Below are positions 8,706 to 25,706 of a stretch of DNA of 64,000 bases, in pieces; position 1 is the stretch's first letter; each line of letters begins with the position of its first letter. Source of the DNA: Candidatus Omnitrophota bacterium (GTDB lineage Bacteria; Omnitrophota; Gorgyraeia; B26-G9); assembly GCA_018817165.1 (NCBI GenBank), contig JAHITY010000124.1:97973-161972 (forward strand). Reading direction: 5' to 3'. The notes under the pieces are model-generated. The model was given only the letters and a program-made list of their open reading frames with translations, made no database searches and had not been told where the DNA came from. Made by a program: the position numbers and the translations under genes.

Positions 8706-10088
8706 ATGAAAAAAATATTGCTTTTAAATCCTCCAGGCAGTCGAAAATTTCTTCGGGATCAGTATTGCAGCTCAGCAACAAAGGCGGATTATTATTGGCC
8801 GGCTGTGGATTTGCTGGTTTTGAGTGGAATTTTGTCTGATCATTTTGAATTGGAGGTTTTGGATGCTATTGCTCTAAATGCAGATAAGAAAACAACAATT
8901 GAAAAGATTCTCAGCGGTTCATATGATGCTTTGATAAGCCTTAGTTCTAGCGCAAGCATGGATGAAGATTTTGCGCTTTTTGAAACAATCAAAGCGAAGA
9001 GTAATATAATTATTATTATAAATGCGGGGTTTTCGCGAGATGATCCTAAAAAATATCTTGAAGAGCATGATTTTATTGATGCGATAATTATGGATTATAT
9101 AAAATTAGGGATTGTTGATTATTTGCAGGCTAAGCCAGGACCATATCAAGGCCTTGGCTATAAGTCAAATAAGCAGATTATTGGCCAAGACAGTGATCTT
9201 GAGCAAAACACTAGCTTTTCTTATCCAGTGCCCAGACATGATCTTTTTGCTTTAAAAAATTATTATTTGCCCCAAGCTAGAAAATTACCTTTTAGCTGTT
9301 GCTTGATCTCATATGGCTGTAAATATGGGTGTACTTATTGTTCAAGTGGTTCAATTGGCTTTAAATTAAGAGATATTGATAATATTATGCTTGAGCTAAA
9401 AGCAATCAAAGCTTTAGGCATATCGGAAGTTCATTTTCCGGATTTCACTTTTACAGCGGATATGACCCATGCGAGAAAGCTTTGTCAAGCGATGATTGAT
9501 CAAGGCCTTGAACTTAGCTGGGACTGCCTAACTCGAGTTGATTGTTTTGATATGGCTACGGCATTGCTGCTGAAAAAAGCCGGAGCGCATACAATTCAGT
9601 TTGGAATTGAGACACAGAATGAGCAATTGCTGAAAAAAATGGGAAAGCCCATCAGCAATGAGCAGGTTAAACGCTGTTTTGCCATATGTAAGCAGGTTGG
9701 TTTGGAAACAATCGGCTTTTTTATCATTGGCTTACCGGGAGAAGATGCTAAAAGCATTAAAAAGAGCATTGATTTTGCTTGCGAGCTTGATTGTGATTAC
9801 GCGGCTTTTTCGATTTATGTTCCGGATCATGGTTCTCTGCTGCGCAAACAATTGGAAACGATTGATCCTTTAATTGCCAATATTAAAAACTTTGACCGAA
9901 CAATGTATCCGGTTATTGATAATCTGATTGTAAGTAGAAGAGTGATTTGGCAGTTGCGTAATTATGCGCTGAAAAAGTTTTATTTGCGGCCTAGCTATAT
10001 TTGGCGGCAGATTAAAAAAATAAATAGTCTTGAAAAAATAAAATCAGTTGGTAAAATAAGTTATTCATTAATCAAAGGGATCATATAG
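8706..10088 (+). CDS. B12-binding domain radical SAM protein (class B rSAM)
   Basis: N-terminal Rossmann-like B12-binding region; CxxxCxxC cluster GCKYGCTYC. Confidence 0.8.
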   Translation: MKKILLLNPPGSRKFLRDQYCSSATKADYYWPAVDLLVLSGILSDHFELEVLDAIALNADKKTTIEKILSGSYDALISLSSSASMDEDFALFETIKAKSNIIIIINAGFSRDDPKKYLEEHDFIDAIIMDYIKLGIVDYLQAKPGPYQGLGYKSNKQIIGQDSDLEQNTSFSYPVPRHDLFALKNYYLPQARKLPFSCCLISYGCKYGCTYCSSGSIGFKLRDIDNIMLELKAIKALGISEVHFPDFTFTADMTHARKLCQAMIDQGLELSWDCLTRVDCFDMATALLLKKAGAHTIQFGIETQNEQLLKKMGKPISNEQVKRCFAICKQVGLETIGFFIIGLPGEDAKSIKKSIDFACELDCDYAAFSIYVPDHGSLLRKQLETIDPLIANIKNFDRTMYPVIDNLIVSRRVIWQLRNYALKKFYLRPSYIWRQIKKINSLEKIKSVGKISYSLIKGII

Positions 10089-10108
10089 CTTTATGGAGTA
10101 TAAATAAT

Positions 10109-11353
10109 TTGAAGATAGCAATAATCGGCGCGGGAATAAGCGGTTTAGTAAATGCCTATAGATTTTCTACCAAGCATCAAGTTACGGTCTATGAACAAAC
10201 CAAGCAGATTGGAGGATTATGCTCAGGTTTTGAATCGGATGGTAAATATATTGATAAATATAATCATTTCTTTTCCAAGTTTGATAAAGAATTAATCGAA
10301 CTTCTTGCTGAGCTGGGGATAAGTAAAAAAGTTTCTTGGAAAAAATCAGGGCAATGTTTATTCATTAATGATCAGCTTCAGGACTTAAGTAATCCGTTTA
10401 ATCTGTTTTCAATCAAGAATCTTGGTTTGCTTGATAAAATTAAAACAGGAAAATTCTTGGTGGAAAATCTTTTTTCCAGAATGAATATGGAGTTAAATGA
10501 CAAAAATGCTGAAGAATGGATTATTGATCAATGTGGTATTGCCGCGTTTAATCTCTTATTTAAGCCATTACTTAATTTTAAAACTCAGCAAACAGAAGAT
10601 ATTAGCGCCATGTATTTAAAGGCGCGGCTTAAAGAAAGAAAAAATAATATAATTGGAATCCTTGATGGAGGGATGCATACGCTGTTGATTGCCTTAAGAG
10701 ACAGACTGCATAAAAATAAAACTCATATTTGGTTAAATTCAAAAGTTAAAAAAATAATGCGAGATGATAAAAATAAGTGGCAGGTTGTTTTAGATACCGG
10801 ATCTGAGGAGTATGATCTGGTTATTGCCTGTATCTCATTGGCTGATGCGTCAGCTTTATTTGGGGGTAATCCGGGGTTTCCTGTGCCAGAGTACCTTAGT
10901 GTCGGATCTTGGGTATTGGATTTAAATAAGCCGCTTAATCAAAAATGCTGGATTTGTTTGGTTGATGATCAACAGGGAAAAAGGCATGTGGTAGTTAATA
11001 CTCAGCCGCTGGACAAGGACAATCGGGCATATTTTACTTTTTATCTGCGCAATCAATCTCTAAATCAGCAAATTGAGCAGGAGATGTTTAATGCTTGCTG
11101 TGATGCCCTAAAAAAGATAAATCCAGAATTTAATCAGCAATGGATCACTCAAAAGACTTTTCACTCAGATGTCAATGTTGAGCCGGTATTTACCCAGAGA
11201 TTTGTCGCTAAACTTTATGGAGCTGTGGAATCATTTAATGGATTGTATCTTCCTGATTTAGTGTACATGCCGCAGCTTTTAAAAACGATTAATACATCAA
11301 TTGTAAAAAGTTTAATAATAAAACAGAGAATTAGAAAAGAATTTAAAATTTAA
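10109..11353 (+). CDS. FAD-dependent oxidoreductase (amine oxidase / protoporphyrinogen oxidase-like fold)
   Basis: N-terminal dinucleotide-binding IAIIGAGISGLVNAY ... YEQTKQIGG. Confidence 0.6.
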   Translation: MKIAIIGAGISGLVNAYRFSTKHQVTVYEQTKQIGGLCSGFESDGKYIDKYNHFFSKFDKELIELLAELGISKKVSWKKSGQCLFINDQLQDLSNPFNLFSIKNLGLLDKIKTGKFLVENLFSRMNMELNDKNAEEWIIDQCGIAAFNLLFKPLLNFKTQQTEDISAMYLKARLKERKNNIIGILDGGMHTLLIALRDRLHKNKTHIWLNSKVKKIMRDDKNKWQVVLDTGSEEYDLVIACISLADASALFGGNPGFPVPEYLSVGSWVLDLNKPLNQKCWICLVDDQQGKRHVVVNTQPLDKDNRAYFTFYLRNQSLNQQIEQEMFNACCDALKKINPEFNQQWITQKTFHSDVNVEPVFTQRFVAKLYGAVESFNGLYLPDLVYMPQLLKTINTSIVKSLIIKQRIRKEFKI

Positions 11354-11365: not shown

Positions 11366-12292
11366 ATGTATGCCACAATACAGGTTGATTTAGATAGTTT
11401 ATGGACTTATGATCGATACCTGTACCAAAAAATAAATAATTATCCGGTTGATCCTGTATATTCGCAAAGTCTTCAATCTTTCCTCGATCTTTTTGCCAAA
11501 TATAAATTAAAAGCCACTTTTTTCATTATTGGCAAAGATGTTCAAAATCCCAAACAAAGCAAATATATTAAAATGATAATTGAACAGGGGCATGAAATTG
11601 CCAATCACAGCATGAATCATCTGTCTGATTTCGCTGCTCTAAGCTTGGAGCAAATAAGAGAGGAAATTATCTTAGCGCATAATCTAATAAAATCAGTGAT
11701 TAATAAGGATCCAGTTGGTTTCCGCGCTCCGATGTTTTCGATTAATCAACCGGTAATCCGAGTGCTTGAGGATCTGGGGTATAAGTATGATGCATCCCTG
11801 ATGCCTTCAGCGATTTTCCCCCTGATGATGAACACGGCACATTCTTTATTAAAGTTAAAACCAGTTAATCTTAAATGCGGAAATATCCGCTGGGGTGATG
11901 CGCCTCGCGGAATTTATCATCCGGATAAGCAAAATATGGCAAAACCCGGGGCAATGGAAATTAAAGAGGTACCGGTCAGCGTAAGTAATTTTGCGCGTTT
12001 TCCGATGCACAGCACATATGTTTTTGTTTTTGGGAAATTTTTATTTGATTCTGGTTTTAACTATGCTTTAAAAAATAAAATAACTTTGCATTATCTTTTT
12101 CATGGGATTGATCTATTGAATATTGAACAATATTCGCTCAAATTACCTGGCTTTAAGACTTTGACTAAAAGGCAGAAAATCTGTGAGCAGATAGTTAAAA
12201 AACTTGCTGAAAATTCGCAGGTTGTCACAACCGAGAATCTGATTGCAATTGGAAAGGAAACCCATGGTATACATCCTGCTTCCGGCATTTAA
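11366..12292 (+). CDS. polysaccharide deacetylase (NodB homology; ArnD-like)
   Basis: ATFFIIGKDV ... HEIANHSMNH match NodB motifs 1 and 2. Confidence 0.75.
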   Translation: MYATIQVDLDSLWTYDRYLYQKINNYPVDPVYSQSLQSFLDLFAKYKLKATFFIIGKDVQNPKQSKYIKMIIEQGHEIANHSMNHLSDFAALSLEQIREEIILAHNLIKSVINKDPVGFRAPMFSINQPVIRVLEDLGYKYDASLMPSAIFPLMMNTAHSLLKLKPVNLKCGNIRWGDAPRGIYHPDKQNMAKPGAMEIKEVPVSVSNFARFPMHSTYVFVFGKFLFDSGFNYALKNKITLHYLFHGIDLLNIEQYSLKLPGFKTLTKRQKICEQIVKKLAENSQVVTTENLIAIGKETHGIHPASGI

Positions 12293-12998
12293 TGAAGCGA
12301 AAAATCTAGAACAGATGTTTACGAATATATCTTTGGTATTAAAGCAGGCAAAACAGCAGTTTTGCATATTTGTAGTTAATGACGGCAGTACTGATAATAC
12401 CGCAAAAATTGTCTTAGAAAAAAACGCGGAATTTCCTTTAGAATTAATTTCTTTTGCCCAAAATCAAGGGGTAGGCCAAGTGTTTCGTCAGGGGATCAAA
12501 ACTATTTGTGCCAAAGCTCAGGCTGCTGACATATTGATATCAATGGATTGCGATCAGACGCATCCAGCTAATGTTTTACCTTTGATGATTGAAAATATAA
12601 GTTCCGGATACGAGCTTGTGATTGCCTCGAGATATCATAAGCAAAGCACTACAGTTAATCTTCCTTGGATCAGGCTGATCATGAGTGACGCGATAAACGG
12701 GTTTTTAAAAGCTTGTTTTGGAATAAAAGGGGCCAGAGATTATTCGACTTTTTTCCGGGCGTATAAAATAGGGTTACTGCAAAAAGCAGAGAAATTTTAT
12801 CAAACTGATTTTATTGAACAAAAGGGTTTTGCCTGTATGGCGGAAATTTTGATAAAACTGCGCAGATTTAATCCGCAAATAAAGGAAGTCCCGCTTAATC
12901 TGCGCTTTGATCTGCGTACGGGCAAAAGTAAGATGAAGGTGTTTAATACTATTTTGGGATATTTGAAGTTAATTGTAAAAGAAAAATTTAGGAAGTGA
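12264..12998 (+). CDS. family 2 glycosyltransferase, polyprenol-phosphate sugar synthase-like (DPM1/ArnC-like)
   Basis: ILLPAFNEAKNL ... VNDGSTDNT ... MDCDQTHP (DxD region). Confidence 0.75.
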   Translation: MVYILLPAFNEAKNLEQMFTNISLVLKQAKQQFCIFVVNDGSTDNTAKIVLEKNAEFPLELISFAQNQGVGQVFRQGIKTICAKAQAADILISMDCDQTHPANVLPLMIENISSGYELVIASRYHKQSTTVNLPWIRLIMSDAINGFLKACFGIKGARDYSTFFRAYKIGLLQKAEKFYQTDFIEQKGFACMAEILIKLRRFNPQIKEVPLNLRFDLRTGKSKMKVFNTILGYLKLIVKEKFRK

Positions 12999-13121
12999 AA
13001 AATATTTACAATGGCGGATTAATAGTCAATAGCTCATGCTAATGGCCAATAGTAAAAATCTCCTGATCCGGGCAGGTAAGTTGGAATATTGTATATCTAA
13101 AATACTTTTAAGGGTAAAAAA

Positions 13122-13634
13122 ATGCTGAAAAATTCAGAGGCAATTCCGCTTTCGATCTTTGTTGTTTATACGAGATTCATTGATTCTCCAATTATCGAAA
13201 ATTGGAAATATCCATTCCTTGTCAGCGGGCTTGCGGCGCTTATTGTCATTATTTCAGTTTTACGCAGAAAAATAATATTTGATCGTATTCTTTTAGGTGT
13301 TAATCTTTATTTAATTAGCGGGGCTTTGGCCTTTATCACGCACAAATGGTGGTTATACAATCTTTACTACCAACTTCAGGCCTCAGGAATGATTGTCTGG
13401 ATTATAGCTACAGGGATTGTAACTGTTTCTTTGAACTCAAAAGGTTTTATTGGTGTTGACTCATCGGATATAAATTCTATTAAAAAATATTCCGGCTATT
13501 TGCTATTGATTTGTGTATTTGCGTTTGCTTTTTCGTTCTGGCTGCGTACCAACATCTTACTTTCAGGATTCCTGCCATTTACTTGCTTATTTTTAGTCCA
13601 AAAATCATTTAAGGATACTTGTCTTAGGAAATAA
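13122..13634 (+). CDS. small integral membrane protein
   Basis: 170 aa with 4-5 hydrophobic helices; no recognisable motif. Confidence 0.4.
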   Translation: MLKNSEAIPLSIFVVYTRFIDSPIIENWKYPFLVSGLAALIVIISVLRRKIIFDRILLGVNLYLISGALAFITHKWWLYNLYYQLQASGMIVWIIATGIVTVSLNSKGFIGVDSSDINSIKKYSGYLLLICVFAFAFSFWLRTNILLSGFLPFTCLFLVQKSFKDTCLRK

Positions 13635-13656
13635 CCTTTTACGCCTTAGAGAATTA

Positions 13657-13691
13657 ATTGTTTTTTCCTTAAGAACGCGGTAATGCGTCTA
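13657..13691. repeat. 35-bp direct repeat (left copy) bounding an ORF-free insert
   Basis: ttaagaacgcggtaatgcgtctactcgataacacg; a split right copy lies at 14271-14392 (ttaagaacgacgcaatac ... taatgcgtt ... aactcgataacac). Confidence 0.45.
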
Positions 13692-14145
13692 CTCGATAAC
13701 ACGTAACCGTACTAGCGCACAAACTAGGTAAATCATATCGTAACTAATAATTCATAACTATACACTTCAAGATGATAGGCAATTTTTACATTATATACTC
13801 AGAGTACTCTTTTCTCTTCATTTCTTTGCTGCAGGTCAAAGAAACGAAGCAAAGAAACCCCGCCCCCAGATGAAACAGTGATGATTTTCTAATGATTTAG
13901 TAACTCCGACTTCACCCCGCATTTGCGGGGTTCGCCGCCAAATCGCTCCTCCTGGCTCAGTGGCGTTCCGCCGTCCTGGCTCCATCTCCGTTCCTAAACC
14001 AAAGAAAATAGATCACTTGGTTTCAAGGGGGGAATCTAAACCTAGCTATTAGATTAATTCATGTGAAAGATGATGGGAAAATTTTTAAGCTTCTCACAAA
14101 TTTAGGTAAATACGTGTCGGATTTTTGGGGACCCTTTAAATGAGA

Positions 14146-14262
14146 GCCTGACTTACGGAGTGTTAGCGAAGTCAAGTCAGCCTGCTCGCTTGTCCCGCCG
14201 TTCTCTGGCGGGGAATTTAGCACGAGAAGCAGCGATTAGCTGCTGATCGTGAATCCTTATTA
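14146..14262 (+). repeat. ~115-bp hairpin-rich dispersed element (X element), copy 1
   Basis: ~90% identical to the reverse complement of 28968-29086; internal hairpins cctgacttacgg/ggctgacttga and aagcagcgattagctgctt. Confidence 0.7.
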
Positions 14263-14270
14263 TTTAAGAA

Positions 14271-14392
14271 CGACGCAATACTAAAGAGTTGCAATCTTTT
14301 GTCAGCGTAAAATTTGCCTGCCATCTTTTAAAAGTAATGCGTTGGCGAGTTGATTGTTTTTTTTATGAACTCGTTAACTCGATAACACTCAA
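14271..14392. repeat. right copy of the 35-bp direct repeat, split by ~85 bp of extra sequence
   Basis: See 13657-13691. Confidence 0.4.
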
Positions 14393-14411
14393 ACGTGTCA
14401 ACCCTGTTAAA

Positions 14412-15827
14412 CTATTTTCTTTTTTCGAAAAGTAAATACTTGAGCATGTAGAATGAGAGTTTGCATAATTGGGGGAGTTGTTTAGGATTGAGCATTTTTT
14501 TGCAGAAAAAACCGATAAAATGCCAGCTGAATAAATAACGGGTATAGATCTGTTTTTGAAAGGTGACTAATTGTTGGGCAGTTAAATGTTTTGTGCCCCA
14601 GGGCGGGACAGAGTGCATGAAATTAAACTTATTCCAATCAATGTCTTTGATCAAACCATATTCCTGCATAATATTATAAATTTCTGTGCCGGGATAGGGA
14701 CAGATAATTCCCAGCTGAAATACATCAGGTTTGATTTCTTTGATTATCTGCTCAGTCAGGGCAATATCTTCAGCAGTTTCTTCAGGATGAGAGCCGAGAA
14801 TAAAAAAAGCGCAGGCAACTATTCCTGCCTTATGCGTTAGCTTGAAAGCTTGCTTGATTTGTTCTATAGTTATGTTTTTCTTCATTAGTTTTAGGATCTT
14901 AGGACTGCCGGATTCAACTCCGTAAGCAATTTTTAAACAACCACAATCCTTCATCAGAGAAATTAGCTGTTTATTGACCATGCTGACTTTAGTCTGACAA
15001 TCCCAAGTTAATTTCAACTCTTTTAATCCAAAACAAATTTGTTTGAATCGATCAGGATTTAAAGTTAGATTAGTGTCTTCAAAGGTAATATGATTATAGC
15101 CCATGTCTTTGCATTGCTTTAATTCAGCAATAACATTTTCTGCGCTGCGGAATCTTGCTTTTGGACCGCTGGTTTTTTTAACAGCGCAGAATGTGCAGTC
15201 CTGAGAACATCCTCGAGAAGTAAATAAAACAGTGGGTTTTTTGCCGGCAGTATCAATGCCGGCAGCATACATATTTTTATATAAATTATGATTCAGTAGG
15301 CTGCGGTCAGGAAAAGGCAGGCTGTCTAAATCTTCAATGTCCTCAGTGGGTTGATTTATCACTGCTTGTTCGTCCTTTATAAAAGCAATGCCGCTGATAC
15401 TGTCAATCGGTTGTTTGTCTCTAAGATTTTGGCAGAGTTTGAGCAAAGCGATTTCACCTTCGCGCAAAACCAGATAATCAAAACAAGGGAATTCCTCTAA
15501 GCTCTGCTTTGGCACTGCGGAAACATGCGCGCCACCGGCAATTGTAATTATATTATTATTGATTTTCTTTGTGGCTTTGGCAAGATCATGCGCATTATTA
15601 ATAGTAGGCGTCATGCTGGTAATGCCGATAATCGAGATATTGGCTTCCTTGATTTTTCGGGCTAAAATATCCGGTGAAAAATGTTCGACCTCAAAATCCC
15701 AAATAATTGTTTTGAATTTATTTGCATTTAAAAAAGCAGCTAAATAGGCGAGGTTTATCGGTTCCTGAATTAGGATTTTTTCAAAAGCTCCAGTTATTTT
15801 TGGCGGACGAATAAGGGCAATATTCAT
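14412..15827 (-). CDS. B12-binding domain radical SAM protein
   Basis: SRGCSQDCTFC rSAM cluster; N-terminal B12-binding-like fold; SD aaggaaag before the ATG. Confidence 0.8.
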   Translation of the reverse strand: MNIALIRPPKITGAFEKILIQEPINLAYLAAFLNANKFKTIIWDFEVEHFSPDILARKIKEANISIIGITSMTPTINNAHDLAKATKKINNNIITIAGGAHVSAVPKQSLEEFPCFDYLVLREGEIALLKLCQNLRDKQPIDSISGIAFIKDEQAVINQPTEDIEDLDSLPFPDRSLLNHNLYKNMYAAGIDTAGKKPTVLFTSRGCSQDCTFCAVKKTSGPKARFRSAENVIAELKQCKDMGYNHITFEDTNLTLNPDRFKQICFGLKELKLTWDCQTKVSMVNKQLISLMKDCGCLKIAYGVESGSPKILKLMKKNITIEQIKQAFKLTHKAGIVACAFFILGSHPEETAEDIALTEQIIKEIKPDVFQLGIICPYPGTEIYNIMQEYGLIKDIDWNKFNFMHSVPPWGTKHLTAQQLVTFQKQIYTRYLFSWHFIGFFCKKMLNPKQLPQLCKLSFYMLKYLLFEKRK

Positions 15828-15875
15828 GTCTTTCCTTAATTACCGATAGTAAATTTAGTCATTGTAACTAATTAA

Positions 15876-15911: not shown

Positions 15912-16053
15912 TAAGTATTTTGTACTTATGTTACTCTTAATATTTTCATAAGTCAACAGTGGGGTTAGAAAGCATGGAGGCTAACATTGATTTTATGCGG
16001 AACAATTGATAAAACAATCTAACTTTATAGAATAAATCTAACCAGGATAAATT

Positions 16054-18916: not shown

Positions 18917-19121
18917 TTCAACTTTTATTCGGTTTTTATGTGCTGTTTATCGTCCGATTGCTTTATTTCGGATTAAGCGCCTTAATTTTAAGTTTCCTAT
19001 AGAATATGCGATGTTTAATTTGCTCAAAAAAATATATTAAGAACAAATTTTGTTATTAAACATTCTAGTTGATAGAATAAATCTTAACCTTAAAAATTAT
19101 AATAAAATCAAGGAAGAGTAT

Positions 19122-20618
19122 ATGCAATTTAGCAAAAAAATAAAGAAAGTCATGTTGATTTTTCCTACAGGAAAAGTCTTGAAATGGCGTTTTCATCATT
19201 GCGAAATTCCTATGGGTCTGGCATATTTAGCAGCTGTTTTAAGAGATGATTTTGAAGTTAAAGTTCTTGATGGCCGGGCAAAATTTCAAAGGATAGTCCC
19301 GAAAAACAGTAAATGGGAGTATTTTGGATATAAGCCAGAGGAGATTGCCGCGCAGGTTAAAGCGTATGCTCCGGATGTAGTGGGAATCAGCTGTCTTTCT
19401 TCATTTCATTTTTCCGATGTTGCGGATTTATTTGAACGTATTAAGCAAGTAGATAAAGATATTATTACTGTAACCGGAGGAACTCATCCGACCTTTTTAG
19501 CTGATGAAGTTATGAAAAAACACACCAGTATTGATTTTATTGTTATGGGTGAAGGTGAACAGACTTTTCGGCAGCTGCTTCTTAATATAAATTCTGAAAA
19601 AGACTATAGCCGAATGGATGGGCTGGCTTTTCGGAGTAAGGGAACTTATCAAATTAATCCCAAGACAGAGTACATTAAAAATCTTGACGAATTGCCTTAT
19701 CCGGCATTTGATTTATTCCCCCTAGATTTTTATGAAAAAAAAAGCATTCCCTTTAGTGTTACCTCTCGCAGTAAGAAAACGATTCCAATTTTAACCAGCC
19801 GCGGCTGCGCGTCAAACTGTATATTCTGCGCGTCTAAAAATTATTGGGGTAACCGTTACCGCATGCGTTCCGCGGAAAATGTATTAGATGAAATAGAATA
19901 TGTGGTCAAAAATTACGGCGCTCGAGAAATTCAGTTTATTGATGATAATCTTACCTTAGATAAAAATAGGGCCTGTAAAATTTTTCAAGGTTTAATTGAC
20001 CGCAAGCTTGATATTCATTGGAATACGCCCAATGGTGTCGCGGTATGGACATTAGATGAAAAGATGCTTAAATTAATGAAGGCAAGCGGCTGTTATGAAT
20101 TAACTGTTGCTTTTGAAAGCGGAGCGCAGGAAGTCTTGACCGATATTATTAAAAAGCCATTGGATTTAGAATACGCGAGAAAAATGGTTAATAAGATGAA
20201 AGAACTGGGTATACAGGTGCATTCATTTTTTATTTCCGGATTTCCCGGAGAAACAAAAGAGCAAATAAAAAGAAGTTTTGCTTTTGCAAAGACCATGGAT
20301 TTAGACAGCGCTTGGTTTTTTGTCGCGAATCCGACACCCGGTTCTGAATTATATGATATTTGCAAAAAAGAAGGATATATTAATGATGATTTCTCATTTG
20401 AAAATATTGAGTATACTCTTTCGCACATAAAAAATAAGGAGTTTACTCCTAAGGAAATGGAAAAACTCGTAATAAAACAGTTTAGTGATTATAATTTAGG
20501 TCAGATGGTAAAACATCCTATTCGTTTTTTAAAAAAATATCTTGGGCTGATAATTTCCCACCCGATAATGTCTTTAAGGACTGTCTTGGCGGATATTTTA
20601 TTTTATGTAGGTAAATGA
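19122..20618 (+). CDS. B12-binding domain radical SAM protein
   Basis: TSRGCASNCIFC; SD aggaag before the ATG at 19122; close paralog of the next gene. Confidence 0.8.
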   Translation: MQFSKKIKKVMLIFPTGKVLKWRFHHCEIPMGLAYLAAVLRDDFEVKVLDGRAKFQRIVPKNSKWEYFGYKPEEIAAQVKAYAPDVVGISCLSSFHFSDVADLFERIKQVDKDIITVTGGTHPTFLADEVMKKHTSIDFIVMGEGEQTFRQLLLNINSEKDYSRMDGLAFRSKGTYQINPKTEYIKNLDELPYPAFDLFPLDFYEKKSIPFSVTSRSKKTIPILTSRGCASNCIFCASKNYWGNRYRMRSAENVLDEIEYVVKNYGAREIQFIDDNLTLDKNRACKIFQGLIDRKLDIHWNTPNGVAVWTLDEKMLKLMKASGCYELTVAFESGAQEVLTDIIKKPLDLEYARKMVNKMKELGIQVHSFFISGFPGETKEQIKRSFAFAKTMDLDSAWFFVANPTPGSELYDICKKEGYINDDFSFENIEYTLSHIKNKEFTPKEMEKLVIKQFSDYNLGQMVKHPIRFLKKYLGLIISHPIMSLRTVLADILFYVGK

Positions 20619-22138
20619 AAAATATTAAAAAAAATATTAAAAAAGTTTTACTTATTTTTCCTCCGGTTGTCTGTTCGCAGGAAAGTCCTAAACAGATCAT
20701 GCCGCCATTGGGGATCAGTTATCTGGGGGCTTATTTAGAAGGTGATTATGAGGTTAAGCTTCTTGATGCCGCTTTAGAAGGTTATGAGCATGAGCAAATA
20801 ATAAGTCCAGGGTTTTTTCAATATGGACTTTCTGCGGAGCAGATAAAACAAAAAATTACTGAATTTTCTCCGGATGTTGTGGGCGTATCATGTTTATATT
20901 CCAGCCAGTTTTCCGCAGTATCCAAAATTTGTGATATAGCCAAAGAAATATCTCCGCTAATAATTACTTTGATCGGAGGCACACATCCGACTTTTCTCCC
21001 TAAAGAGTGTTTGGGATTTGAATCTATTGATTTTATTTGTTTGGGAGAAGGGGAATTGCCGACAAAAGCGCTGCTTGATAGTTTTAAAAATGGAAATTCT
21101 TATGAACATATAGATGGAATTGCTTTTCGTACAGACAAAGATATTGTAATCAATCCCCAAAAAAGAATAATTGAAAATATTGATGCTTTGCCTCATCCGG
21201 CAAGGCATCTGTTGTCTTTAGATAAATATTTTAAAATTGGTTTGCCAATGGGGCTGATCAGCCGTAAGACTCCGGCGATTAATATTATAACTTCGCGGGG
21301 CTGTCCGTTTGAGTGCTCGTTTTGTTCTTCATGCCATTTTTGGAGTAGACGCTATCGAGTGCGTTCTGTGGAAAATGTTTTAGGGGAAATGGATGAGCTT
21401 AAAAAAATGGGAGTGCGAGAGTTAAAATTCTTTGATGATAATCTAACATTGGATAAGCCGCGGGCAAAGGCTTTGTTTAAGGCTATGATCAAACGCGAAT
21501 ACAATTTTAGCTGGAATACCCCCAATGGGATTGCCGCGCAAACTCTTGATGAAGAATTGCTGTATTTAATGAAAGCTAGCGGGTGTTATGAGGTGACTTT
21601 AGCCATAGAAAGCGGAGATGAACAGATATTAAAAGAAGTTCTAAAAAAACCAATTGATTTAGAATATACTATAAAAATGGCTAAGCTGATTAAGAAATTG
21701 GGCATGGATACATACGGTTTTTTTATTATTGGGTTTCCTCAGGAGACTAAAAAACAAATATATAAAACTCTAAAATTTATGGATAAAATTAAACTGGATA
21801 GAATTTCCTTGTTTATCGCAAATCCGTTGCCCGGCACAGAAATATACGATGTTTGTAAAAAACAAAATTATCTGTGCGCTCAGATTACGGGTAAAGCATT
21901 AGATTATTTTAGTTCGAGTTTTGAAACACCTGAGTTTGATTCAAAGTTTCTAGAAAAAATCAGAAGAGATTGGTATTGGGCATATAATTTAAAGCTTTTA
22001 TTAAGAAATCCTTTTAAATTTTTCCGAAATTATAGTATATTTATATTCAAAAGACCGTTATTTTTATTCCAAGTTTTAATAAAAAAACTAATTATTCCGA
22101 GCCTAATATATGGAAAACGCAAAACTTCAAAAAAATAA
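20615..22138 (+). CDS. B12-binding domain radical SAM protein
   Basis: TSRGCPFECSFC; ATGA overlap with the upstream paralog; shares HPTFL, WNTPNG and MKASGCYE blocks with 19122-20618. Confidence 0.8.
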   Translation: MKNIKKNIKKVLLIFPPVVCSQESPKQIMPPLGISYLGAYLEGDYEVKLLDAALEGYEHEQIISPGFFQYGLSAEQIKQKITEFSPDVVGVSCLYSSQFSAVSKICDIAKEISPLIITLIGGTHPTFLPKECLGFESIDFICLGEGELPTKALLDSFKNGNSYEHIDGIAFRTDKDIVINPQKRIIENIDALPHPARHLLSLDKYFKIGLPMGLISRKTPAINIITSRGCPFECSFCSSCHFWSRRYRVRSVENVLGEMDELKKMGVRELKFFDDNLTLDKPRAKALFKAMIKREYNFSWNTPNGIAAQTLDEELLYLMKASGCYEVTLAIESGDEQILKEVLKKPIDLEYTIKMAKLIKKLGMDTYGFFIIGFPQETKKQIYKTLKFMDKIKLDRISLFIANPLPGTEIYDVCKKQNYLCAQITGKALDYFSSSFETPEFDSKFLEKIRRDWYWAYNLKLLLRNPFKFFRNYSIFIFKRPLFLFQVLIKKLIIPSLIYGKRKTSKK

Positions 22139-24176
22139 ATCTAGATACATCGATCTGATTATTTGCTTAGGCATATTCTTTTTCGCGTTTTTTCTGCGCT
22201 TGATCTATCTTTATGAGTATAGAAATAATCCTTTTTTTGACAGCCCGGTAATTGATGCTTTGACTAATTATTTGTTTGCTATGCGTGCCGCTGAGGGGGA
22301 TTGGCTTGTAAAGGGAGTAGTTGTTGGTCGTGGGCCGGTGTATGTGTATTTTCTGGCTGGTTTATTTAAAATTTTTGGAGCGGGTTTTACCACGGTTCGC
22401 GTATGGCAGATGGCTTTAGGCGCGGTTAATTGTATTTTAGTGTATTTTTTAGGGAAAAAGATATTTTCTCGCTCGGTTGGGGTAATCAGTGCTTTTATCT
22501 GCAGTATGTATGGGGTGCTGATCTATTTTGACGCGGAATTTTTGTACGTGGGGCTGGCAATATTTATAAATATCCTGTTGATCTTATCTTTATTGAATTC
22601 AATCGATAGACCCAAGGTTTGGAAATGGATCGGCTGCGGGATCCTTCTGGGAGCGTCTCTTCAAACAAACGCGACTATAATATTATTCTTTCCTCTGCTC
22701 TTTATATGGTTATTTTTATCCGCGGATAAGAAAAAGCAGGATGAGCAAATAAATAACAAAAAGATCAGATTTAGAAAAGCTATGGGACCATTTTTATTAA
22801 TTGCTACTGGAGTAAGTCTGGTTATGCTTCCATTTACTTTGCGTAACTATTTTATGGGTGGAGATCTGGTAATGATCGGTTCAGCGGTGGGGATTAATTT
22901 GCATATTGGCAATAATCTGAATGCTGATGGTAAAAGTGTGAATGTCCCGACAAGGGATTTCTCTTATTCAAATCAGTGGGACGATAATACGCTGATTGCT
23001 GCTAAAAAAGGCGCGGAAAGGGAAATGGGAAGAGAAATATTGCCTTCTGAGGCTTCTAATTACTGGATACGCAAATCTCTGGGTTTTATGTTAACTAATC
23101 CTGTAACTGCTTTGTCTCTTTTTATAAGAAAATTTTATTATTTTTTTAATGCTTATGAGATTGCGGAAAATCAGAGTATTTATTTTTATCGTCTTTGGTC
23201 ACCGCTGTTAAAAATACTGGTCTTTCATAATAGGGTACTGGCTTTTCCTTTTGGAATAATTTGCCCATTAGCTTTATGGGGAATTGCTGTTTCTGCGAAA
23301 AAAAATAAGGCAGTGATGCTGCTGCTTATTTATCTGGCGGCATTTTTAATGCTTATGATGATTTTCTTTGTTTGTAGCCGTTACCGGACGATTGCTGTTC
23401 CGGTTTTCGTGATTTTTGCGGCAGTTGCTTTGGATTGGTACGCTAAACAGATAAGAGAGCGTAAATTTAAAGTTTTATTTTTATCGTTGATACCGCTGTT
23501 TTTCCTTTATCTATTTAGTAATTCGATTGTTTTTGATATTCGCCAAGAAGATCAATCGCGGTGGTTTTTAAATCTGGGCACTGCTTATCGAAATAAAGGG
23601 GAAAATGAAAAAGCAATTAAATCCTTTAAGGCGGCAGAAAAAGTAAACCCGCGTAATCCTGACGCGGTATACAATCTCGGAGTCATATATTTGGAAAAAG
23701 AAGAATATCAAGACGCAATTGAGGAATTTAGAAAATCGATTAAAATAGATGAGTATGATTCTGCGGCTTATTCCAATGTGGGCATAGTCTTGATGAAGCA
23801 AAAAAAAATTGATGAAGCTATTGCCAGTTTTCAATCAGCACTGACCTTAGACCCGGCTGATGTAACAGCAATGGCAAATCTAGGAGCTGCTTTAATTACA
23901 AAAGGCGATTATCCCGCGGCGCTACTCGTACTTAAGCAAGGACTGGAAAGGGATGAGAATTTTCCGCCACTGCATTTGCATTTGGGCATATTGTTTGAAG
24001 AAACGGGAAAGTATGCGGAGGCAGAACAAGCATATATAAGTGCGATAAAAAAAGACCCGGAATATATTCAAGCTTATTGGGGTTTGGCTAAACTTTATGA
24101 TATAATTGGACTCCCGGATAAGGCAAAGTGGGCAAGGACCAAAGCAATGTATATGGTTTCTGATAAGCTTAAATAA
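22110..24176 (+). CDS. GT-C family membrane glycosyltransferase (PMT/ArnT-like) with C-terminal TPR repeats
   Basis: N-terminal multi-helix region with FFDSPV-type loop typical of the PMT_2/ArnT family; C-terminal repeats of AxxxYxxAxxxxP TPR units. Confidence 0.65.
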   Translation: MENAKLQKNKSRYIDLIICLGIFFFAFFLRLIYLYEYRNNPFFDSPVIDALTNYLFAMRAAEGDWLVKGVVVGRGPVYVYFLAGLFKIFGAGFTTVRVWQMALGAVNCILVYFLGKKIFSRSVGVISAFICSMYGVLIYFDAEFLYVGLAIFINILLILSLLNSIDRPKVWKWIGCGILLGASLQTNATIILFFPLLFIWLFLSADKKKQDEQINNKKIRFRKAMGPFLLIATGVSLVMLPFTLRNYFMGGDLVMIGSAVGINLHIGNNLNADGKSVNVPTRDFSYSNQWDDNTLIAAKKGAEREMGREILPSEASNYWIRKSLGFMLTNPVTALSLFIRKFYYFFNAYEIAENQSIYFYRLWSPLLKILVFHNRVLAFPFGIICPLALWGIAVSAKKNKAVMLLLIYLAAFLMLMMIFFVCSRYRTIAVPVFVIFAAVALDWYAKQIRERKFKVLFLSLIPLFFLYLFSNSIVFDIRQEDQSRWFLNLGTAYRNKGENEKAIKSFKAAEKVNPRNPDAVYNLGVIYLEKEEYQDAIEEFRKSIKIDEYDSAAYSNVGIVLMKQKKIDEAIASFQSALTLDPADVTAMANLGAALITKGDYPAALLVLKQGLERDENFPPLHLHLGILFEETGKYAEAEQAYISAIKKDPEYIQAYWGLAKLYDIIGLPDKAKWARTKAMYMVSDKLK

Positions 24177-24179
24177 AAT

Positions 24180-25706
24180 CTAAAACTTCTTTTTTATTTT
24201 TTTCCCCAAAGCTTTTGAGAGTATCCATCCGGACATAATCGCGGTAGTTATGCCGGTTCCCGGAATAGTCCAATGACCAGATAAATGTAGATTTTTAATC
24301 GGGGTTGTTTGTTTTAAACGGTAGATTAAGCTTTGTTCCGGAGAATTGGCCCAACCATACATTGCTCCACGATGACTCAAAGAGAAATCATTTAAATCTT
24401 GGGGCGTAAATATCTTTTTAATCACAATATGATCAGACAAGTTTTTGACTTTTTTTTCTACCAGTTGAATCATTTCATGGGCAATTTGCTCTTTTGCGCT
24501 GCGCCAATCACGTTCTGTTTGCCAGGGGTAGAAAAGGGTTAAAATTAATGTGCTGTGACCTTTTGGCGCTAAATTCGGTTCAAGGTGGGTCGGACTATAG
24601 GCACTTAAGCAGGGAACTAGACCTTTTTCGAATTTTTCATAACATTCTTCAAAATCAAAAGATTCGTAGAAAAAATATTCGTGTTGGGCAAACCCATGTT
24701 TAGCAATATCAAAATCAAGACCTATAAATACTTTAAAAGGTCCTACAGATGGAGTTAGTTTGGATAGTTTTCGCATATAATTTTTAGGCAGAATATCCGG
24801 ATCAATCAGTTTTGTAAAAGTTTGTATTGCATCCGCATTAGAAATAACTGTTTTAGCAAATATCTTTTGGCCGTTTTCTAAGACGACTCCTTGCGCGATA
24901 TTGTTTTTAACGATAATTTCTTTAACCCCAGAGTTGAGCATAACCTTGCCTTGATTTTCCTCTATGGCGCTGACAAAGACATCAGCAATTTTTTGTGAAT
25001 TACCTTGAGGATAATAGGTGTGTTCGCCATATAGGCCGCTCATGCATGATACCATCCATAATCCAGAAGCTTTTTTCGGAGGCAATCCCAGATAAGGCCA
25101 ACATGCCGCGAATAAAGCGGCGATGTTTTTATTTTTAGTCAGTATTTTGAAAAGTTTATCGGTAGTTTTGCGAGAATTTAAAAACCAAAACAAGCCGGTA
25201 AACGGGAAGGTTAGTTTTTTTAATAATTTAATTTTTCCATAATTACTGTTTTCAACTGATTTTTTACCTTGGAAAATCCGCCCGGTAATTAGTATGTCTT
25301 GCCGCCAGGCAATCATTGTCTTAAAAAATCGGCGGATGTCTTTCTTATGGTCAGGAGCCAGGTCAATCATAGCTTTTTCAAGCCCTTCATAACTTCCGGG
25401 CAGAGAAATTTCGCGATCAGGTAGGATTAAAGTAACAAAAGGGTCAATTCTGAAAAATTTAAGTTTATCCTTAATTTTATAATCTTCAAAAACTTGCGCG
25501 CAGTTGCCATTATCATCAACTCCGGTTAATTGATGTACTGCTACGTCAAATGTATAATCTCCGATAGGAAAGGAAGAGCAATTGCCTCCGGCAACTGAGT
25601 TGCGTTCGCAAACAACTACCTTTTGCCCAGCTCTGGCTAATCCTAAAGCCGCGGATAAACCGCCCATGCCACTGCCAATAACTATCACATCTACATTATT
25701 TTGCAT
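24180..25706 (-). CDS. phytoene desaturase-family FAD-dependent oxidoreductase (CrtI-like)
   Basis: DVIVIGSGMGGLSAALGLARAGQKVVVCE dinucleotide-binding motif; ~500-aa CrtI-like length. Confidence 0.7.
   Translation of the reverse strand: MQNNVDVIVIGSGMGGLSAALGLARAGQKVVVCERNSVAGGNCSSFPIGDYTFDVAVHQLTGVDDNGNCAQVFEDYKIKDKLKFFRIDPFVTLILPDREISLPGSYEGLEKAMIDLAPDHKKDIRRFFKTMIAWRQDILITGRIFQGKKSVENSNYGKIKLLKKLTFPFTGLFWFLNSRKTTDKLFKILTKNKNIAALFAACWPYLGLPPKKASGLWMVSCMSGLYGEHTYYPQGNSQKIADVFVSAIEENQGKVMLNSGVKEIIVKNNIAQGVVLENGQKIFAKTVISNADAIQTFTKLIDPDILPKNYMRKLSKLTPSVGPFKVFIGLDFDIAKHGFAQHEYFFYESFDFEECYEKFEKGLVPCLSAYSPTHLEPNLAPKGHSTLILTLFYPWQTERDWRSAKEQIAHEMIQLVEKKVKNLSDHIVIKKIFTPQDLNDFSLSHRGAMYGWANSPEQSLIYRLKQTTPIKNLHLSGHWTIPGTGITTAIMSGWILSKALGKKIKKKF

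Follow-up and report, generated by a model that had tools for sequence, protein, structure and literature searches.

A conserved Omnitrophota locus rich in radical-SAM genes that may modify a cell-envelope glycoconjugate

The locus at 8706–25706 of the window (the whole 64,000-nt stretch of a Candidatus Omnitrophota contig that was analysed) carries six radical-SAM (rSAM) genes, designated R1–R6, two flavoenzymes, a NodB deacetylase, a GT2, a small membrane protein and a GT-C/TPR protein. Each gene listed in the initial annotation was found where it had been placed, including a seventh B12-rSAM with a DUF4080 extension further downstream, in which both domains were detected.

7186–8604, − strand: rpoN, present as listed
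8706–10088, + strand: R1, rSAM with a degenerate Rossmann/B12-like N-terminal domain, AprD4/HpnJ-like, at the head of the left module
10109–11353, + strand: FADoxA, amine-oxidase-fold flavoenzyme of a PRK07233-like uncharacterised clade
11366–12292, + strand: NodB-fold (CE4) sugar N-deacetylase, cytoplasmic (Polysacc_deac_1, 80.4 bits)
12243–12998, + strand: GT2 of the polyprenyl-phosphate sugar synthase class, soluble, 251 aa (Glycos_transf_2, 70.4 bits)
13122–13634, + strand: orf170, small membrane protein with four TM segments, of an unnamed family, within an insertion (13002–14409)
14412–15827, − strand: R2, class-B rSAM, conserved core
16054–17553, + strand: R3, rSAM with a weak B12 domain, accessory module (R3, R4 and the CrtI-like gene)
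17561–19040, + strand: R4, class-B rSAM, accessory module (the assembled ORF ends at 18916)
19050–20618, + strand: R5, class-B rSAM, core
20615–22138, + strand: R6, class-B rSAM, core
22110–24176, + strand: GT-C glycosyltransferase with a PMT_2 domain, ∼10–11 TM helices and a C-terminal TPR region (∼residues 480–688)
24180–25706, − strand: CrtI-like FAD oxidoreductase, accessory module, co-present with R3 and R4
62440–63933: seventh rSAM, with B12 and DUF4080 domains

By synteny comparison, at least eight Omnitrophota contigs have the locus flanked by rpoN on one side and pyrR-pyrB-pyrC on the other, a chromosomal position that holds over a broad range of Omnitrophota. Homologues of the rSAM family occur at a density of 0.24 per 100 kb in unrelated control loci totalling 1.25 Mb, so that ∼0.04 would be expected in 17 kb; with six observed, the clustering exceeds chance. 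Overlaps between neighbouring genes (50 nt for the deacetylase and GT2, 4 nt for R5 and R6, 29 nt for R6 and GT-C) indicate co-translation, as far as gene spacing can be read, and those of R5/R6 and R6/GT-C point to translational coupling of R5, R6 and GT-C. No TM segment or signal peptide is present in any of the rSAMs, in either flavoenzyme, in the deacetylase or in GT2; GT-C is the sole integral membrane member. No −24/−12 site was found in the intergenic regions of the cluster, and the adjacency of rpoN is a matter of synteny only.

R1 has a clear Radical_SAM domain in Pfam (67.5 bits), while its B12-binding match (17.8 bits) is under the cutoff of 32.1 bits that applies to this domain throughout. 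Its best NCBIfam model is HpnJ (143.7 bits versus a cutoff of 577.6), with AprD4 at 89.8 bits. The best sequence match in the PDB is AprD4 (6fd2, E-value 5.9e-21), and an AF2 model of R1 (pLDDT 90.5) also has AprD4 as its top Foldseek match (TM 0.76–0.79); by the title of the entry, the crystals of AprD4 contained paromamine. Identity to AprD4 is just ∼20%, and the scores are far below the cutoffs of both families. Judged by these sequence and model comparisons, the nearest relatives of R1 are enzymes that work on glucosamine rings, AprD4 by sequence and fold and HpnJ by profile. AprD4 is cobalamin-independent (PMC12931638), and R1 probably is as well. The HpnJ step comes after deacetylation by HpnK (PMC13459092). 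Orthologues of R1 are present in every Omnitrophota locus whose sequence extends to its position.

A single CxxxCxxC motif lies ∼200–250 residues from the start of each of the R1–R6 ORFs. The SRGC form of this motif, initially assigned to all six rSAMs, is present in five, while R1 has SYGCKYGCTYC; likewise, B12 binding is supported for R2, R4, R5 and R6 (51–89 bits) and falls below threshold for R3 and R1. The description of the six as paralogues fits R5 and R6 (42% identity), all other pairs being at 24–31%. In Pfam, the B12-binding and Radical_SAM scores, respectively, are 78.8 and 89.9 bits for R2, 25.4 and 57.9 for R3, 51.1 and 75.5 for R4, 89.3 and 82.4 for R5, and 81.4 and 83.8 for R6. 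The best NCBIfam models are HpnJ for R2 (198 bits versus 578), BchE for R3 (128.6 versus 481), TIGR04072, a ladderane-associated lipid rSAM, for R4 (137 versus 360) and the Sden_1168 family for R5 and R6 (303.5 and 327.7 versus 575). The search against characterised families that had been proposed thus left all six rSAMs under the curated cutoffs (best scores 129–328 bits versus 360–578). R6 has >3500 homologues at E-value ≤1e-20. As assembled, R4 contains a frameshift, with one extra A within an A10 run at ∼18847–18856; its conserved final ∼40 residues sit in another frame that ends at 19040 (orthologues have 492–493 aa). The true start of R5 is probably near 19122, since its orthologues are 498–499 aa long (508 aa in one JGI gene call).

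The locus comes in two versions, a four-rSAM core and a six-rSAM form with R3, R4 and the CrtI-like gene added. R2 belongs to both and was found in every relative whose contig extends there. Related loci L001, L154, L167 and L168 carry R3 (78–89% identity), which L002, L003/L004 and L091 lack; the CrtI-like gene occurs in L001, L138, L167 and L168 but not in L002, L003 or L091. R3, R4 and the CrtI-like gene co-vary as one module and, together with R5, R6 and GT-C, as a single cassette. In comparison with L003, pyrB is 99% identical, but identity drops to 44% for GT-C, 58% for R5 and 62% for R6, and R3, R4 and the CrtI-like gene are missing; identity of GT-C, R5 and R6 follows the cassette type rather than the genome backbone. 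Among close relatives both halves of the locus have thus undergone exchange, a mosaic behaviour typical of surface-antigen loci.

The six rSAMs belong to no characterised family and the gene order is kept in related genomes, as the proposed neighbourhood check established, so the view of the locus as a coherent, conserved and uncharacterised tailoring system stands; no comparable pathway has been characterised so far.

Among the partner enzymes, FADoxA begins 20 nt past R1 and is kept in relatives. It matches Amino_oxidase (69.8 bits) and NAD_binding_8 (41.6 bits) in Pfam and PRK07233, a ‘hypothetical protein’, in NCBIfam (239.7 bits versus a cutoff of 252), with HpnE as second match; its match to PDB sequences is confined to the N-terminal FAD motif. 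The CrtI-like enzyme scores 81.7 bits for Amino_oxidase, 172.4 versus 238 for crtI_fam and 149 versus 587 for carotenoid isomerase. The deacetylase has HSMNH and RAP motifs and an N-terminal VDLD, and its best NCBIfam models (PdaB, XrtA-system deacetylase and NodB) are all sub-cutoff. R1 shares an operon with this deacetylase, which would create a glucosamine-type ring. GT2 has as its top PDB sequence match the Pyrococcus Dol-P-Man synthase (5mlz, 77.8 bits, residues 8–244), followed by ArnC (three structures) and GtrB; its NCBIfam matches, all sub-cutoff, are ArnC, PgfS, Dol-P hexose transferase, PpgS and AglJ, with no match to HpnI. The GT-C fold was confirmed, with a conserved Asp in the first loop. 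Its top fold matches include yeast Pmt4, a protein O-mannosyltransferase, and the fold comparison does not separate a Pmt4-like enzyme (protein acceptor) from an ArnT-like one (lipid A acceptor).

Related partnerships occur in other phyla. Distant R1 homologues (37–40% identity) are found across phyla in trios of rSAM, YdjC and GT2, where GT2 is full-length and ArnC/PgfS-like (207–219 bits), YdjC is HpnK-like (195–204 bits versus 232.6) and, in one trio, a PMT_2 GT-C is transcribed divergently. The Scalinduaceae homologue of R1 shares an overlap with a PMT/PMT_2 gene and lies in a cluster with five GT-Cs, two GT2s and three further B12-rSAMs. The partnership of R1, a deacetylase and GT2 thus recurs elsewhere with non-homologous parts. 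For the R5/R6 family, an unbiased count of neighbours at 80 metagenome loci and at control loci, the control set being of other taxonomy and the HMMs having been built from the test set, revealed an enrichment of glycan genes; per 100 kb, test versus control, there were 4.3 versus 0.24 GT4 genes, 4.1 versus 0.96 GT2 genes like that of the window, 2.6 versus 0.64 PMT_2 GT-Cs and 2.3 versus 0.08 TPR genes, while WecA, AsnB and Wzy were seen in the test set and in none of the control loci. Besides these, neighbours elsewhere include Wzx, UDP-sugar dehydrogenase, epimerase and carbamoyltransferase, and two recurrent polysaccharide-operon architectures include rSAMs of this family. Glycan genes are present in 17 of 25 long loci from outside Omnitrophota.

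These results led us to a reading, to which we give an even chance, in which the locus modifies a cell-envelope glycoconjugate through a lipid-carrier relay similar to ArnC/ArnD/ArnT, with rSAM tailoring of an amino sugar. The known relay has a cytoplasmic step that yields a polyprenyl-phosphate sugar and a periplasmic one in which a GT-C transfers the sugar. Here, the soluble GT2 would move an N-acetyl-hexosamine from a nucleotide sugar onto polyprenyl phosphate on the cytoplasmic side of the membrane, and the NodB deacetylase would then expose the 2-amino group. R1 may take a hydrogen atom from the hexosamine ring, leading either to an AprD4-like 1,2-diol dehydration (deoxygenation) or to an HpnJ-like rearrangement, with the adjoining FADoxA dealing with the ensuing redox step. 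The B12-dependent R2, R5 and R6 would modify the sugar further, most likely by methylating unactivated carbons; in the extended cassette R3, R4 and the CrtI-like flavoenzyme would join in, again most likely with methylations. After flipping, GT-C would hand on the completed sugar to an acceptor in the periplasm or at the surface, one chosen by the TPR domain of GT-C. Several observations count against this reading: no flippase or nucleotide-sugar synthesis gene is conserved in the Omnitrophota locus, the superfamily of both flavoenzymes is best known for isoprenoid and amine substrates, one of the four distant R1 contexts and 8 of the 25 long loci have no glycan gene, and some R5/R6-family arrays, such as L005 with its eight rSAMs, have none within 10 kb.

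The initial annotation had left lipid and glycoconjugate tailoring side by side. We favour the glycoconjugate, because of the type of GT2, the relatives of R1, its distant contexts and the polysaccharide loci of other phyla with R5/R6-family genes, whose neighbours are sugar-pathway genes. That the rSAMs and flavoenzymes instead methylate, cyclise or (de)saturate a membrane lipid or the polyprenol carrier, with GT2, the deacetylase and R1 building an HpnI/K/J-like cyclitol head group, appears distinctly improbable. Precedents for action on lipids are GrsA, Hgm/Gmm, HpnP/R and the ladderane enzymes, and the top curated matches of R4, R1 and R2, the CrtI-like score for crtI_fam, the HpnE match of FADoxA and the joint variation of R3, R4 and the CrtI-like gene all point in this direction, as do the Mss and Hbs homologues for membrane-spanning lipids reported in Omnitrophota (10.1101/2023.10.20.563219). 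Still, each of these scores is far under cutoff, no prenyltransferase, fatty-acid or isoprenoid gene was found in the window or related loci, nor any cyclase, whose absence had been noted initially, and R6 is coupled to GT-C, which moves sugars, not lipids. The suggested parallel with hpnI/K/J holds for the logic of GT2, deacetylase and rSAM, which recurs across phyla. A hopanoid cyclitol-ether system itself was rejected, given the lack of an HpnI match, the score of R1 for HpnJ (144 versus 578 bits) and the lack of hopanoid genes in the window; moreover, HpnK is a YdjC protein whereas the deacetylase here is NodB-fold, and in place of HpnI both the locus and the distant trios have a GT2 of polyprenyl-phosphate type (DPMS/ArnC/GtrB/PgfS).

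Homology does not reveal the substrates of rSAMs, which here could be nucleotide sugars, the finished glycan or the acceptor in place of the lipid-linked sugar. A glycan pathway in which the substrates of the rSAMs are nucleotide sugars, the finished polymer or a protein acceptor (altered in the cytoplasm, ahead of export, by RiPP-like methylation or epimerisation) that GT-C/TPR then glycosylates is, in our estimate, unlikely. Many class-B rSAMs are peptide C-methyltransferases, TPR domains mostly bind proteins, Pmt4 is among the top GT-C fold matches and, in other phyla, the rSAMs adjoin UDP-sugar dehydrogenases and epimerases, enzymes of the nucleotide-sugar stage. The ApyD and rSAM_ocin_1 models match R2 and R4–R6 at 90–153 bits, but these scores are far under cutoff, and the locus has no conserved small precursor-peptide ORF. 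The pairing of R1 with a deacetylase and a GT2 of the ArnC type, which recurs in different phyla, speaks for the lipid-linked stage; in known relays (ArnD, NaxD), N-deacetylation occurs on the polyprenyl-phosphate sugar. For ArnD this stage of deacetylation is documented (PMC4402001). Very improbable, we think, is a secondary-metabolite cluster for an aminoglycoside-like compound or a moenomycin-like phosphoglycolipid rather than a structural envelope component. AsnB-type amidotransferases and carbamoyltransferases, a pair that resembles the moenomycin toolkit, adjoin related rSAMs, R1 is AprD4-like, and B12-rSAM sugar C-methyltransferases are known from antibiotic pathways (GenK, GenD1, Fms7 and MoeK5; PMC12931638). 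Yet the site between rpoN and the pyr genes is fixed, the locus has no gene for a scaffold-forming enzyme (2-deoxy-scyllo-inosose synthase, aminotransferase or prenyltransferase), for resistance or for export, and the periplasmic-type architecture of GT-C suits envelope modification. Least probable of all is that these rSAM and glyco genes are unrelated to one another and just happen to be neighbours: R2 and the CrtI-like gene run against the other genes, evolutionary history differs between the two halves and several arrays elsewhere consist of rSAMs alone, but tight spacing, synteny in at least eight contigs, co-variation of the cassette and the independent rise of the same partnerships in other phyla argue for a single system.

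The small membrane protein orf170 had been counted as part of the cluster. The insertion that carries it is missing in all seven relatives compared (L001–L003, L091, L154, L167 and L168), and it is therefore specific to the window and outside the conserved cluster. Without a Pfam or NCBIfam match, orf170 is nonetheless a member of a real protein family with 314 representatives at E-value ≤1e-3, full-length matches included.

The locus at 8706–25706 contains exactly the genes named in the initial annotation, with rpoN lying divergently upstream as reported there.

Genes of the locus (coordinates, strand, product)
8706–10088, + strand: R1, radical-SAM (rSAM) enzyme
10109–11353: FADoxA, amine-oxidase-fold flavoenzyme
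11366–12292: NodB deacetylase
12243–12998: GT2 glycosyltransferase
13122–13634: orf170, 170-aa membrane ORF
14412–15827, − strand: R2, rSAM enzyme
16054–17553, + strand: R3, rSAM enzyme
17561–18916, + strand: R4, rSAM enzyme (frameshifted as assembled)
19050–20618, + strand: R5, rSAM enzyme
20615–22138, + strand: R6, rSAM enzyme
22110–24176: PMT_2 membrane glycosyltransferase (GT-C) fused to TPR repeats
24180–25706, − strand: CrtI-like flavoenzyme

Six rSAM genes in 17 kb far exceed the background, since control loci (1.25 Mb) carry rSAM-family genes at 0.24 per 100 kb. These control loci, from Chloroflexota and Patescibacteria, came from a contig search with a FADoxA alignment; the search relied on generic peptide patterns, returned only 21–32% paralogues without partner genes, and was set aside as uninformative on the module. 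In the cluster, R5 overlaps R6, R6 overlaps the GT-C gene and the deacetylase gene overlaps that of GT2. Among the conserved proteins of the locus, transmembrane (TM) segments or signal peptides are predicted in the GT-C alone. The seventh rSAM gene with a DUF4080 extension is indeed present at 62440–63933 (B12-binding 55.7 bits, Radical_SAM 48.7, DUF4080 67.7), 36 kb off among unrelated small genes; its product is 21–27% identical to R1–R6, and no link between it and the cluster was seen. Elsewhere the window carries housekeeping genes, among them those for pyruvate kinase, ThrRS and PheRS beta and the pyr genes, with a tRNA cluster at 40374–40893 (Cys-GCA, Leu-TAA and Val-GAC).

The Radical_SAM domain (PF04055) scores above its cutoff in all six rSAMs (57.9–89.9 bits), and each carries a single copy of the CxxxCxxC motif after a Rossmann-like N-terminal domain. 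The description of the six as paralogous B12-binding enzymes with an SRGC context holds in part. The B12-binding domain (PF02310, cutoff 32.1 bits) is detected in R2 (78.8), R4 (51.1), R5 (89.3) and R6 (81.4) but falls below the cutoff in R3 (25.4) and R1 (17.8); the SRGC context is present in five of the six, R1 having YGCKYGCTYC instead; and R5 and R6 are close (42% identity), whereas the other pairs are 24–31% identical.

When compared with profiles of characterised class-B families, a check proposed in the initial annotation, all six rSAMs remained below the cutoff of every matched model, and none came near any curated cutoff in the NCBIfam scan. The HpnJ model (TIGR03471, cutoff 577.6 bits) was not reached by R1 (143.7), R2 (198.1), R5 (213.0) or R6 (181.6), nor the AprD4 family model (NF033070, cutoff 500) by R1 (89.8 bits), nor the Sden_1168 family P-methyltransferase model (NF038361, cutoff 575) by R5 (303.5) or R6 (327.7). 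For R5 and R6 the Sden_1168 model is the best one, followed by HpnJ, BchE and PhpK; the best model is BchE for R3 (129 bits versus cutoff 481) and the ladderane-associated rSAM for R4 (137 bits versus cutoff 360). Matches to BchE, HpnR, PhpK, the TsrM-type Trp methylase, the ladderane rSAM, the MCR Gln methylase, BzaD, KedN5 and ApyD were all sub-cutoff, and no GrsA, Fom3, GenK or MoeK5 model was among the NCBIfam matches. FADoxA scores 239.7 bits against PRK07233, a ‘hypothetical protein’ model with a cutoff of 252. Curated libraries offer no names for the rSAMs or FADoxA. The CrtI-like protein reaches neither the CrtI family model (TIGR02734; 172.4 bits, cutoff 238.1) nor the carotenoid isomerase model (149 bits, cutoff 587).

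The top PDB matches of GT2 belong exclusively to the polyprenyl-phosphate class: DPMS 5mlz, the Pyrococcus Dol-P-Man synthase (77.8 bits, residues 8–244), ArnC three times, and GtrB; chondroitin synthase comes next with only 32 bits. Its NCBIfam matches are ArnC, PgfS, PpgS, AglJ and Dol-P hexose transferase; HpnI is not matched at E ≤ 1e-3, and the ArnC equivalog (NF007986, cutoff 529) is not reached (58.8 bits). The C-terminal TM helices of ArnC and GtrB are absent from this 251-aa protein, for which zero TM segments are predicted; soluble or peripheral members (DPM1 type) exist among polyprenyl-phosphate GT2s. The deacetylase is a CE4/NodB enzyme by PF01522 (80.4 bits versus cutoff 23.1) with the motifs HSMNH, FRAPMF and an N-terminal VDLD. 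The GT-C has a multi-TM GT-C fold, and its first extracytoplasmic loop carries an acidic residue, an Asp conserved across its family. This family is small (46 matches, nearly all from Omnitrophota). The PDB profile search matched its membrane domain to no solved GT-C, and fold comparison gave near-equal scores for Pmt4 and ArnT, which does not separate the subfamilies.

Taken together, the class of GT2, the GT-C, the compartments and the gene overlaps give the locus the architecture of the ArnC/ArnD/ArnT relay, in which a sugar is attached to undecaprenyl phosphate and loses its acyl group in the cytoplasm before it is flipped and a GT-C transfers it (PMC4402001). The closest relays are ArnC/ArnD/ArnE-F/ArnT (L-Ara4N), Francisella FlmF2/NaxD/FlmK and Bordetella LgmA/C/B (lipid A aminosugar). 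No gene of the locus reaches any Arn equivalog cutoff, however, and ArnA/ArnB-type sugar-nucleotide genes and a conserved ArnE/F-type flippase are missing. The GT-C of the locus bears a TPR domain, which ArnT lacks, and the locus adds four to six rSAMs and one or two flavoenzymes, found in no known relay. The other closest class is that of the PMT/TMTC-type GT-C protein O-mannosyltransferases (GT39, TPR-fused TMTC); unlike the mannose used there, the donor sugar of the GT-C in the locus is probably a modified hexosamine.

The initial annotation compared the locus with hpnI/K/J. In that system GlcNAc is attached by a GT2, a deacetylase exposes its amino group, and the glucosamine ring is then reworked by an rSAM (PMC13459092). 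The locus would follow the same order of steps, and HpnJ is the top profile for R2 and the closest curated profile for R1. The deacetylase, however, has a NodB and not a YdjC fold, GT2 is of the polyprenyl-phosphate type and not HpnI-like, and the product would pass to a GT-C and so must stay a glycosyl donor. Membership of the hopanoid system itself was rejected on these two enzymes, on the score of R1 (144 bits versus 578) and on the lack of hopanoid genes in the window. The statement that no cyclase is present was borne out, the large ORFs scanned in the window being housekeeping genes.

The nearest solved relative of R1 by sequence is AprD4 (78 bits in the PDB search), and AprD4 is also the nearest by fold (TM 0.76–0.79 over the full length of a predicted model with pLDDT 90.5), at an identity of only ∼20%. 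AprD4, which was crystallised with paromamine, is a radical 1,2-diol dehydratase that works without cobalamin and whose Rossmann-like N-domain binds none (PMC12931638). HpnJ probably brings about ring contraction of the glucosamine in BHT-glucosamine once HpnK has deacetylated it (PMC13459092). The substrate of both is a free-amine glucosamine ring, and the deacetylase of the R1 operon would make such a ring. R1 resembles AprD4 of the AprD4/AprD3 pair (3′-deoxygenation of paromamine) in domain layout and in the Rossmann-like N-domain. The redox partner of AprD4 is a NAD(P)H reductase of the AprD3 type, whereas R1 would pair with an FAD amine-oxidase-fold protein; and AprD4 serves aminoglycoside synthesis, whereas R1 would serve envelope glycosylation.

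Distant homologues of R1, whose top profile is HpnJ (208–215 bits), were seen in four contexts. In two of these, L085 (Aminicenantes) and L169 (a MAG contig), an R1 homologue (38–39% identity) heads an rSAM-YdjC-GT2 trio, in which the YdjC protein is HpnK-like (195–204 bits versus cutoff 232.6) and the GT2 is full-length and of ArnC/PgfS type (207–219 bits), not HpnI; L169 also carries an AsnB gene and a PMT_2 GT-C transcribed divergently. The partnership of R1 with a deacetylase and a GT2 recurs, then, using non-homologous parts. The Scalinduaceae contig JBHICG010000004.1 (L084) has an R1 homologue overlapping a PMT/PMT_2 gene, within a 21-kb stretch containing five PMT_2 GT-Cs, two GT2s, a GT4, a Wzx-type gene, AsnB and five rSAMs (R1 homologue included); three more B12-rSAMs are in the cluster of the R1 homologue. 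This anammox relative displays the same theme as the window locus, more densely packed. No glycan genes were seen around the R1 homologue of the remaining context (L086).

Several B12-rSAM methylases act on sugars, MoeK5 on a lipid-linked sugar. R5 and R6 have the same two-domain architecture as the B12-rSAM sugar and phosphonate methylases, but score about half the equivalog cutoff, and up to five such enzymes occur per locus. GenK, GenD1, Fms7, MoeK5, Fom3, PhpK and SD_1168 are listed as Csp3 or P methyltransferases (PMC12931638).

The R5/R6 family has >3500 members at E ≤ 1e-20. For a census, 80 metagenome loci were sampled by R5/R6-family alignment, ORFs were called, the neighbours were clustered without prior labels, and the largest clusters were then annotated. 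Further B12-rSAMs account for 155 genes across 78 loci. The recurrent neighbours comprise GT4, three kinds of GT2, PMT_2 GT-Cs like that of the window, TPR proteins, WecA/MraY-family transferases, Wzy, Wzx, UDP-sugar dehydrogenases, NAD epimerases, AsnB amidotransferases, NodU-type carbamoyltransferases, SAM methyltransferases, the TIGR04076 small protein and a flavoenzyme of amine-oxidase fold from the uncharacterised PRK07208/PRK07233 group shared with FADoxA. Their rates are 4- to 28-fold above those in the control loci. Of the loci from outside Omnitrophota, 25 are 15 kb or longer; one or more glycan genes occur in 17 of these, and at least two rSAMs in 14.

Two gene orders stand out. A highly conserved polysaccharide operon is shared by six loci (L110, L116, L121, L122, L128 and L157) and reads AsnB, PMT_2 GT-C, GT2, TIGR04076, methyltransferase (MT), GT4, R6-like B12-rSAM, UDP-sugar dehydrogenase, epimerase, TPR, WecA, PRK07208-like flavoenzyme, epimerase, GT4. 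As a model for the role of the rSAM, this operon may be more tractable than the Omnitrophota locus. The other, found in three loci, is GT2, GT4, Wzy, GT4/MT, rSAM, rSAM, GT2. A Deltaproteobacteria chromosome (CP070770.1, 10001–21224 and upstream) is a counter-example to strict glycan association: it has eight B12-binding rSAM genes in a row, several of them R5/R6-like (∼50% identity), and an alpha/beta hydrolase, with no glycosyltransferase within 10 kb.

In every Omnitrophota relative retrieved the cluster occupies the same slot, from rpoN to pyrR-pyrB-pyrC, which bears out the conservation of gene order. The core cassette, with four rSAMs, has the order R1-FADoxA-deacetylase-GT2, R2 on the other strand, R5-R6-GT-C/TPR, and is found in L002, L003/L004 and L091. 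The window, L001, L167 and L168 have the extended version, to which R3, R4 and the CrtI-like gene are added, and L154 and L138 show part of it.

Comparison of four relatives with the window (%)
L003: backbone pyrB 99, pyrR 97, rpoN 90; left half (R1–R2) 76–86; right half R5 58, R6 62, GT-C 44, with R3, R4 and CrtI absent
L167: pyrB 93; left half FADoxA, deacetylase and GT2 (three covered) 66–72, R2 80; right half 88–91
L168: pyrB 95; left half R2 alone covered, 90; right half 78–92
L001: pyrB 76; left half 37–64; right half 71–82

DNA alignments place the breakpoints at ∼15.8 kb, between the divergent genes R2 and R3, and at ∼25.9 kb; the gene-by-gene identities show the two halves of the locus to have separate histories. 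Since the similarity of the GT-C, R5 and R6 follows cassette type and not genome relatedness, the transferase and the rSAM set travel as a unit, both in inheritance and in exchange. Cassette exchange of this kind is typical of surface-antigen loci and is itself evidence for functional coupling. In an exact-sequence look-up R1 and the GT-C were on record exactly and R6 had no record. Sigma-54 control through the neighbouring rpoN was also considered and rejected, since no −24/−12 element (TGGCAC-N5-TTGCW, ≤2 mismatches) occurs in the intergenic regions of the cluster (8605–8705, 15828–16053 and 25707–26071); the whole window has 16 matches versus 30 expected by chance.

Enzyme classes and compartments, operon coupling, synteny, cassette co-inheritance and the cross-phylum recurrence of partnerships are shown by the analysis, and a pathway can be proposed on them. 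GT2 would make polyprenyl-P-HexNAc, which the NodB enzyme would deacetylate. R1 and FADoxA would carry out a radical deoxygenation or rearrangement and an associated redox step. Of these outcomes we prefer, by inference, the AprD4-like one, solely because its product stays a competent glycosyl donor, which is not obviously so after an HpnJ-like ring contraction. The B12-rSAMs R2, R5 and R6, and in the extended cassette R3, R4 and the CrtI-like protein too, would add further modifications, the most common class-B chemistry being methylation of unactivated carbons (PMC12931638). The GT-C would deliver the sugar to an acceptor selected by its TPR domain. Extended beyond this locus, the proposal becomes tentative and rather doubtful: thousands of rSAMs, mostly B12-dependent, from anaerobic uncultured phyla could form a large unrecognised class that tailors polyprenyl-phosphate-attached sugars, with deoxygenated, rearranged and C-methylated amino sugars reaching the surface via GT-Cs, and Omnitrophota could swap the rSAM set and matching GT-C as cassettes, a radical-chemistry form of surface variation in tiny host-associated cells.

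The initial annotation spoke of a ‘lipid/glycoconjugate’ tailoring pathway. The glycoconjugate half of this is favoured, while lipid tailoring by the locus is disfavoured by the type of GT2, the neighbour census and the absence of lipid and isoprenoid genes; it may still apply to the R3/R4/CrtI-like module specifically. That the rSAMs instead have nucleotide sugars, the polymer or a protein acceptor as their substrate is a serious variant of the lipid-carrier model. A secondary-metabolite cluster and the mere adjacency of unrelated genes are both unlikely, as the locus keeps its place on the chromosome, its genes are tightly coupled and those of the cassette are inherited together. A RiPP reading was set aside because the locus has no conserved precursor ORF.

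The individual kinds of enzyme and the logic of the relay are already known. In the literature searched, no GT2/deacetylase/GT-C relay that includes rSAMs is described, and searches on rSAMs with undecaprenyl phosphate and GT-C, on cobalamin-rSAM C-methylation of polysaccharides and on Sden_1168 returned no such system. Class-B rSAM genes number many thousands in databases, and to our knowledge most are without an assigned substrate. For two large rSAM clades at least, those of R1 and of R5/R6, the present analysis offers lipid-carrier-linked amino sugars as a substrate class that can be tested. Should the model hold, radical C-H functionalisation joins the repertoire by which bacteria diversify surface glycans, and new deoxy, C-methyl or rearranged hexosamines would be expected in Omnitrophota, anammox Planctomycetota, Aminicenantes and Deltaproteobacteria. 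Omnitrophota are known nearly only through metagenomes; the locus exposes a putative exchangeable surface-modification cassette and gives a handle on their surface variation.

The frameshift in R4 lies at a run of 10 As (18847–18856), one A more than in the interrupted A-run of four orthologues, and the conserved last ∼40 residues continue in a different frame up to 19040. The extra A reflects either a fault in the assembly or slipped-strand (phase) variation of a surface-glycan gene.

Among the relatives compared, an insertion at 13002–14409 is unique to this genome and consists of orf170 and ∼780 nt of non-coding DNA. Pfam and NCBIfam give no family for orf170, which belongs to a real, unnamed family of four-TM proteins of ∼170–190 aa (314 representatives at E ≤ 1e-3, 130 at E ≤ 1e-10); a flippase role for it in the relay would be pure speculation. 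The 13.0–14.4 kb insertion matched no Rfam family and nothing among the retrieved loci or plasmids. Within it, an ORF-free, GC-richer stretch of ∼630 nt (13711–14338) is flanked by imperfect ∼70-nt direct repeats (13643–13710 and 14339–14396, 74–80% identical). This stretch contains perfect GC hairpins, folds better than its shuffles on both strands (z −4.2/−4.7, 20 shuffles each) and could be a MITE-like element or an ncRNA.
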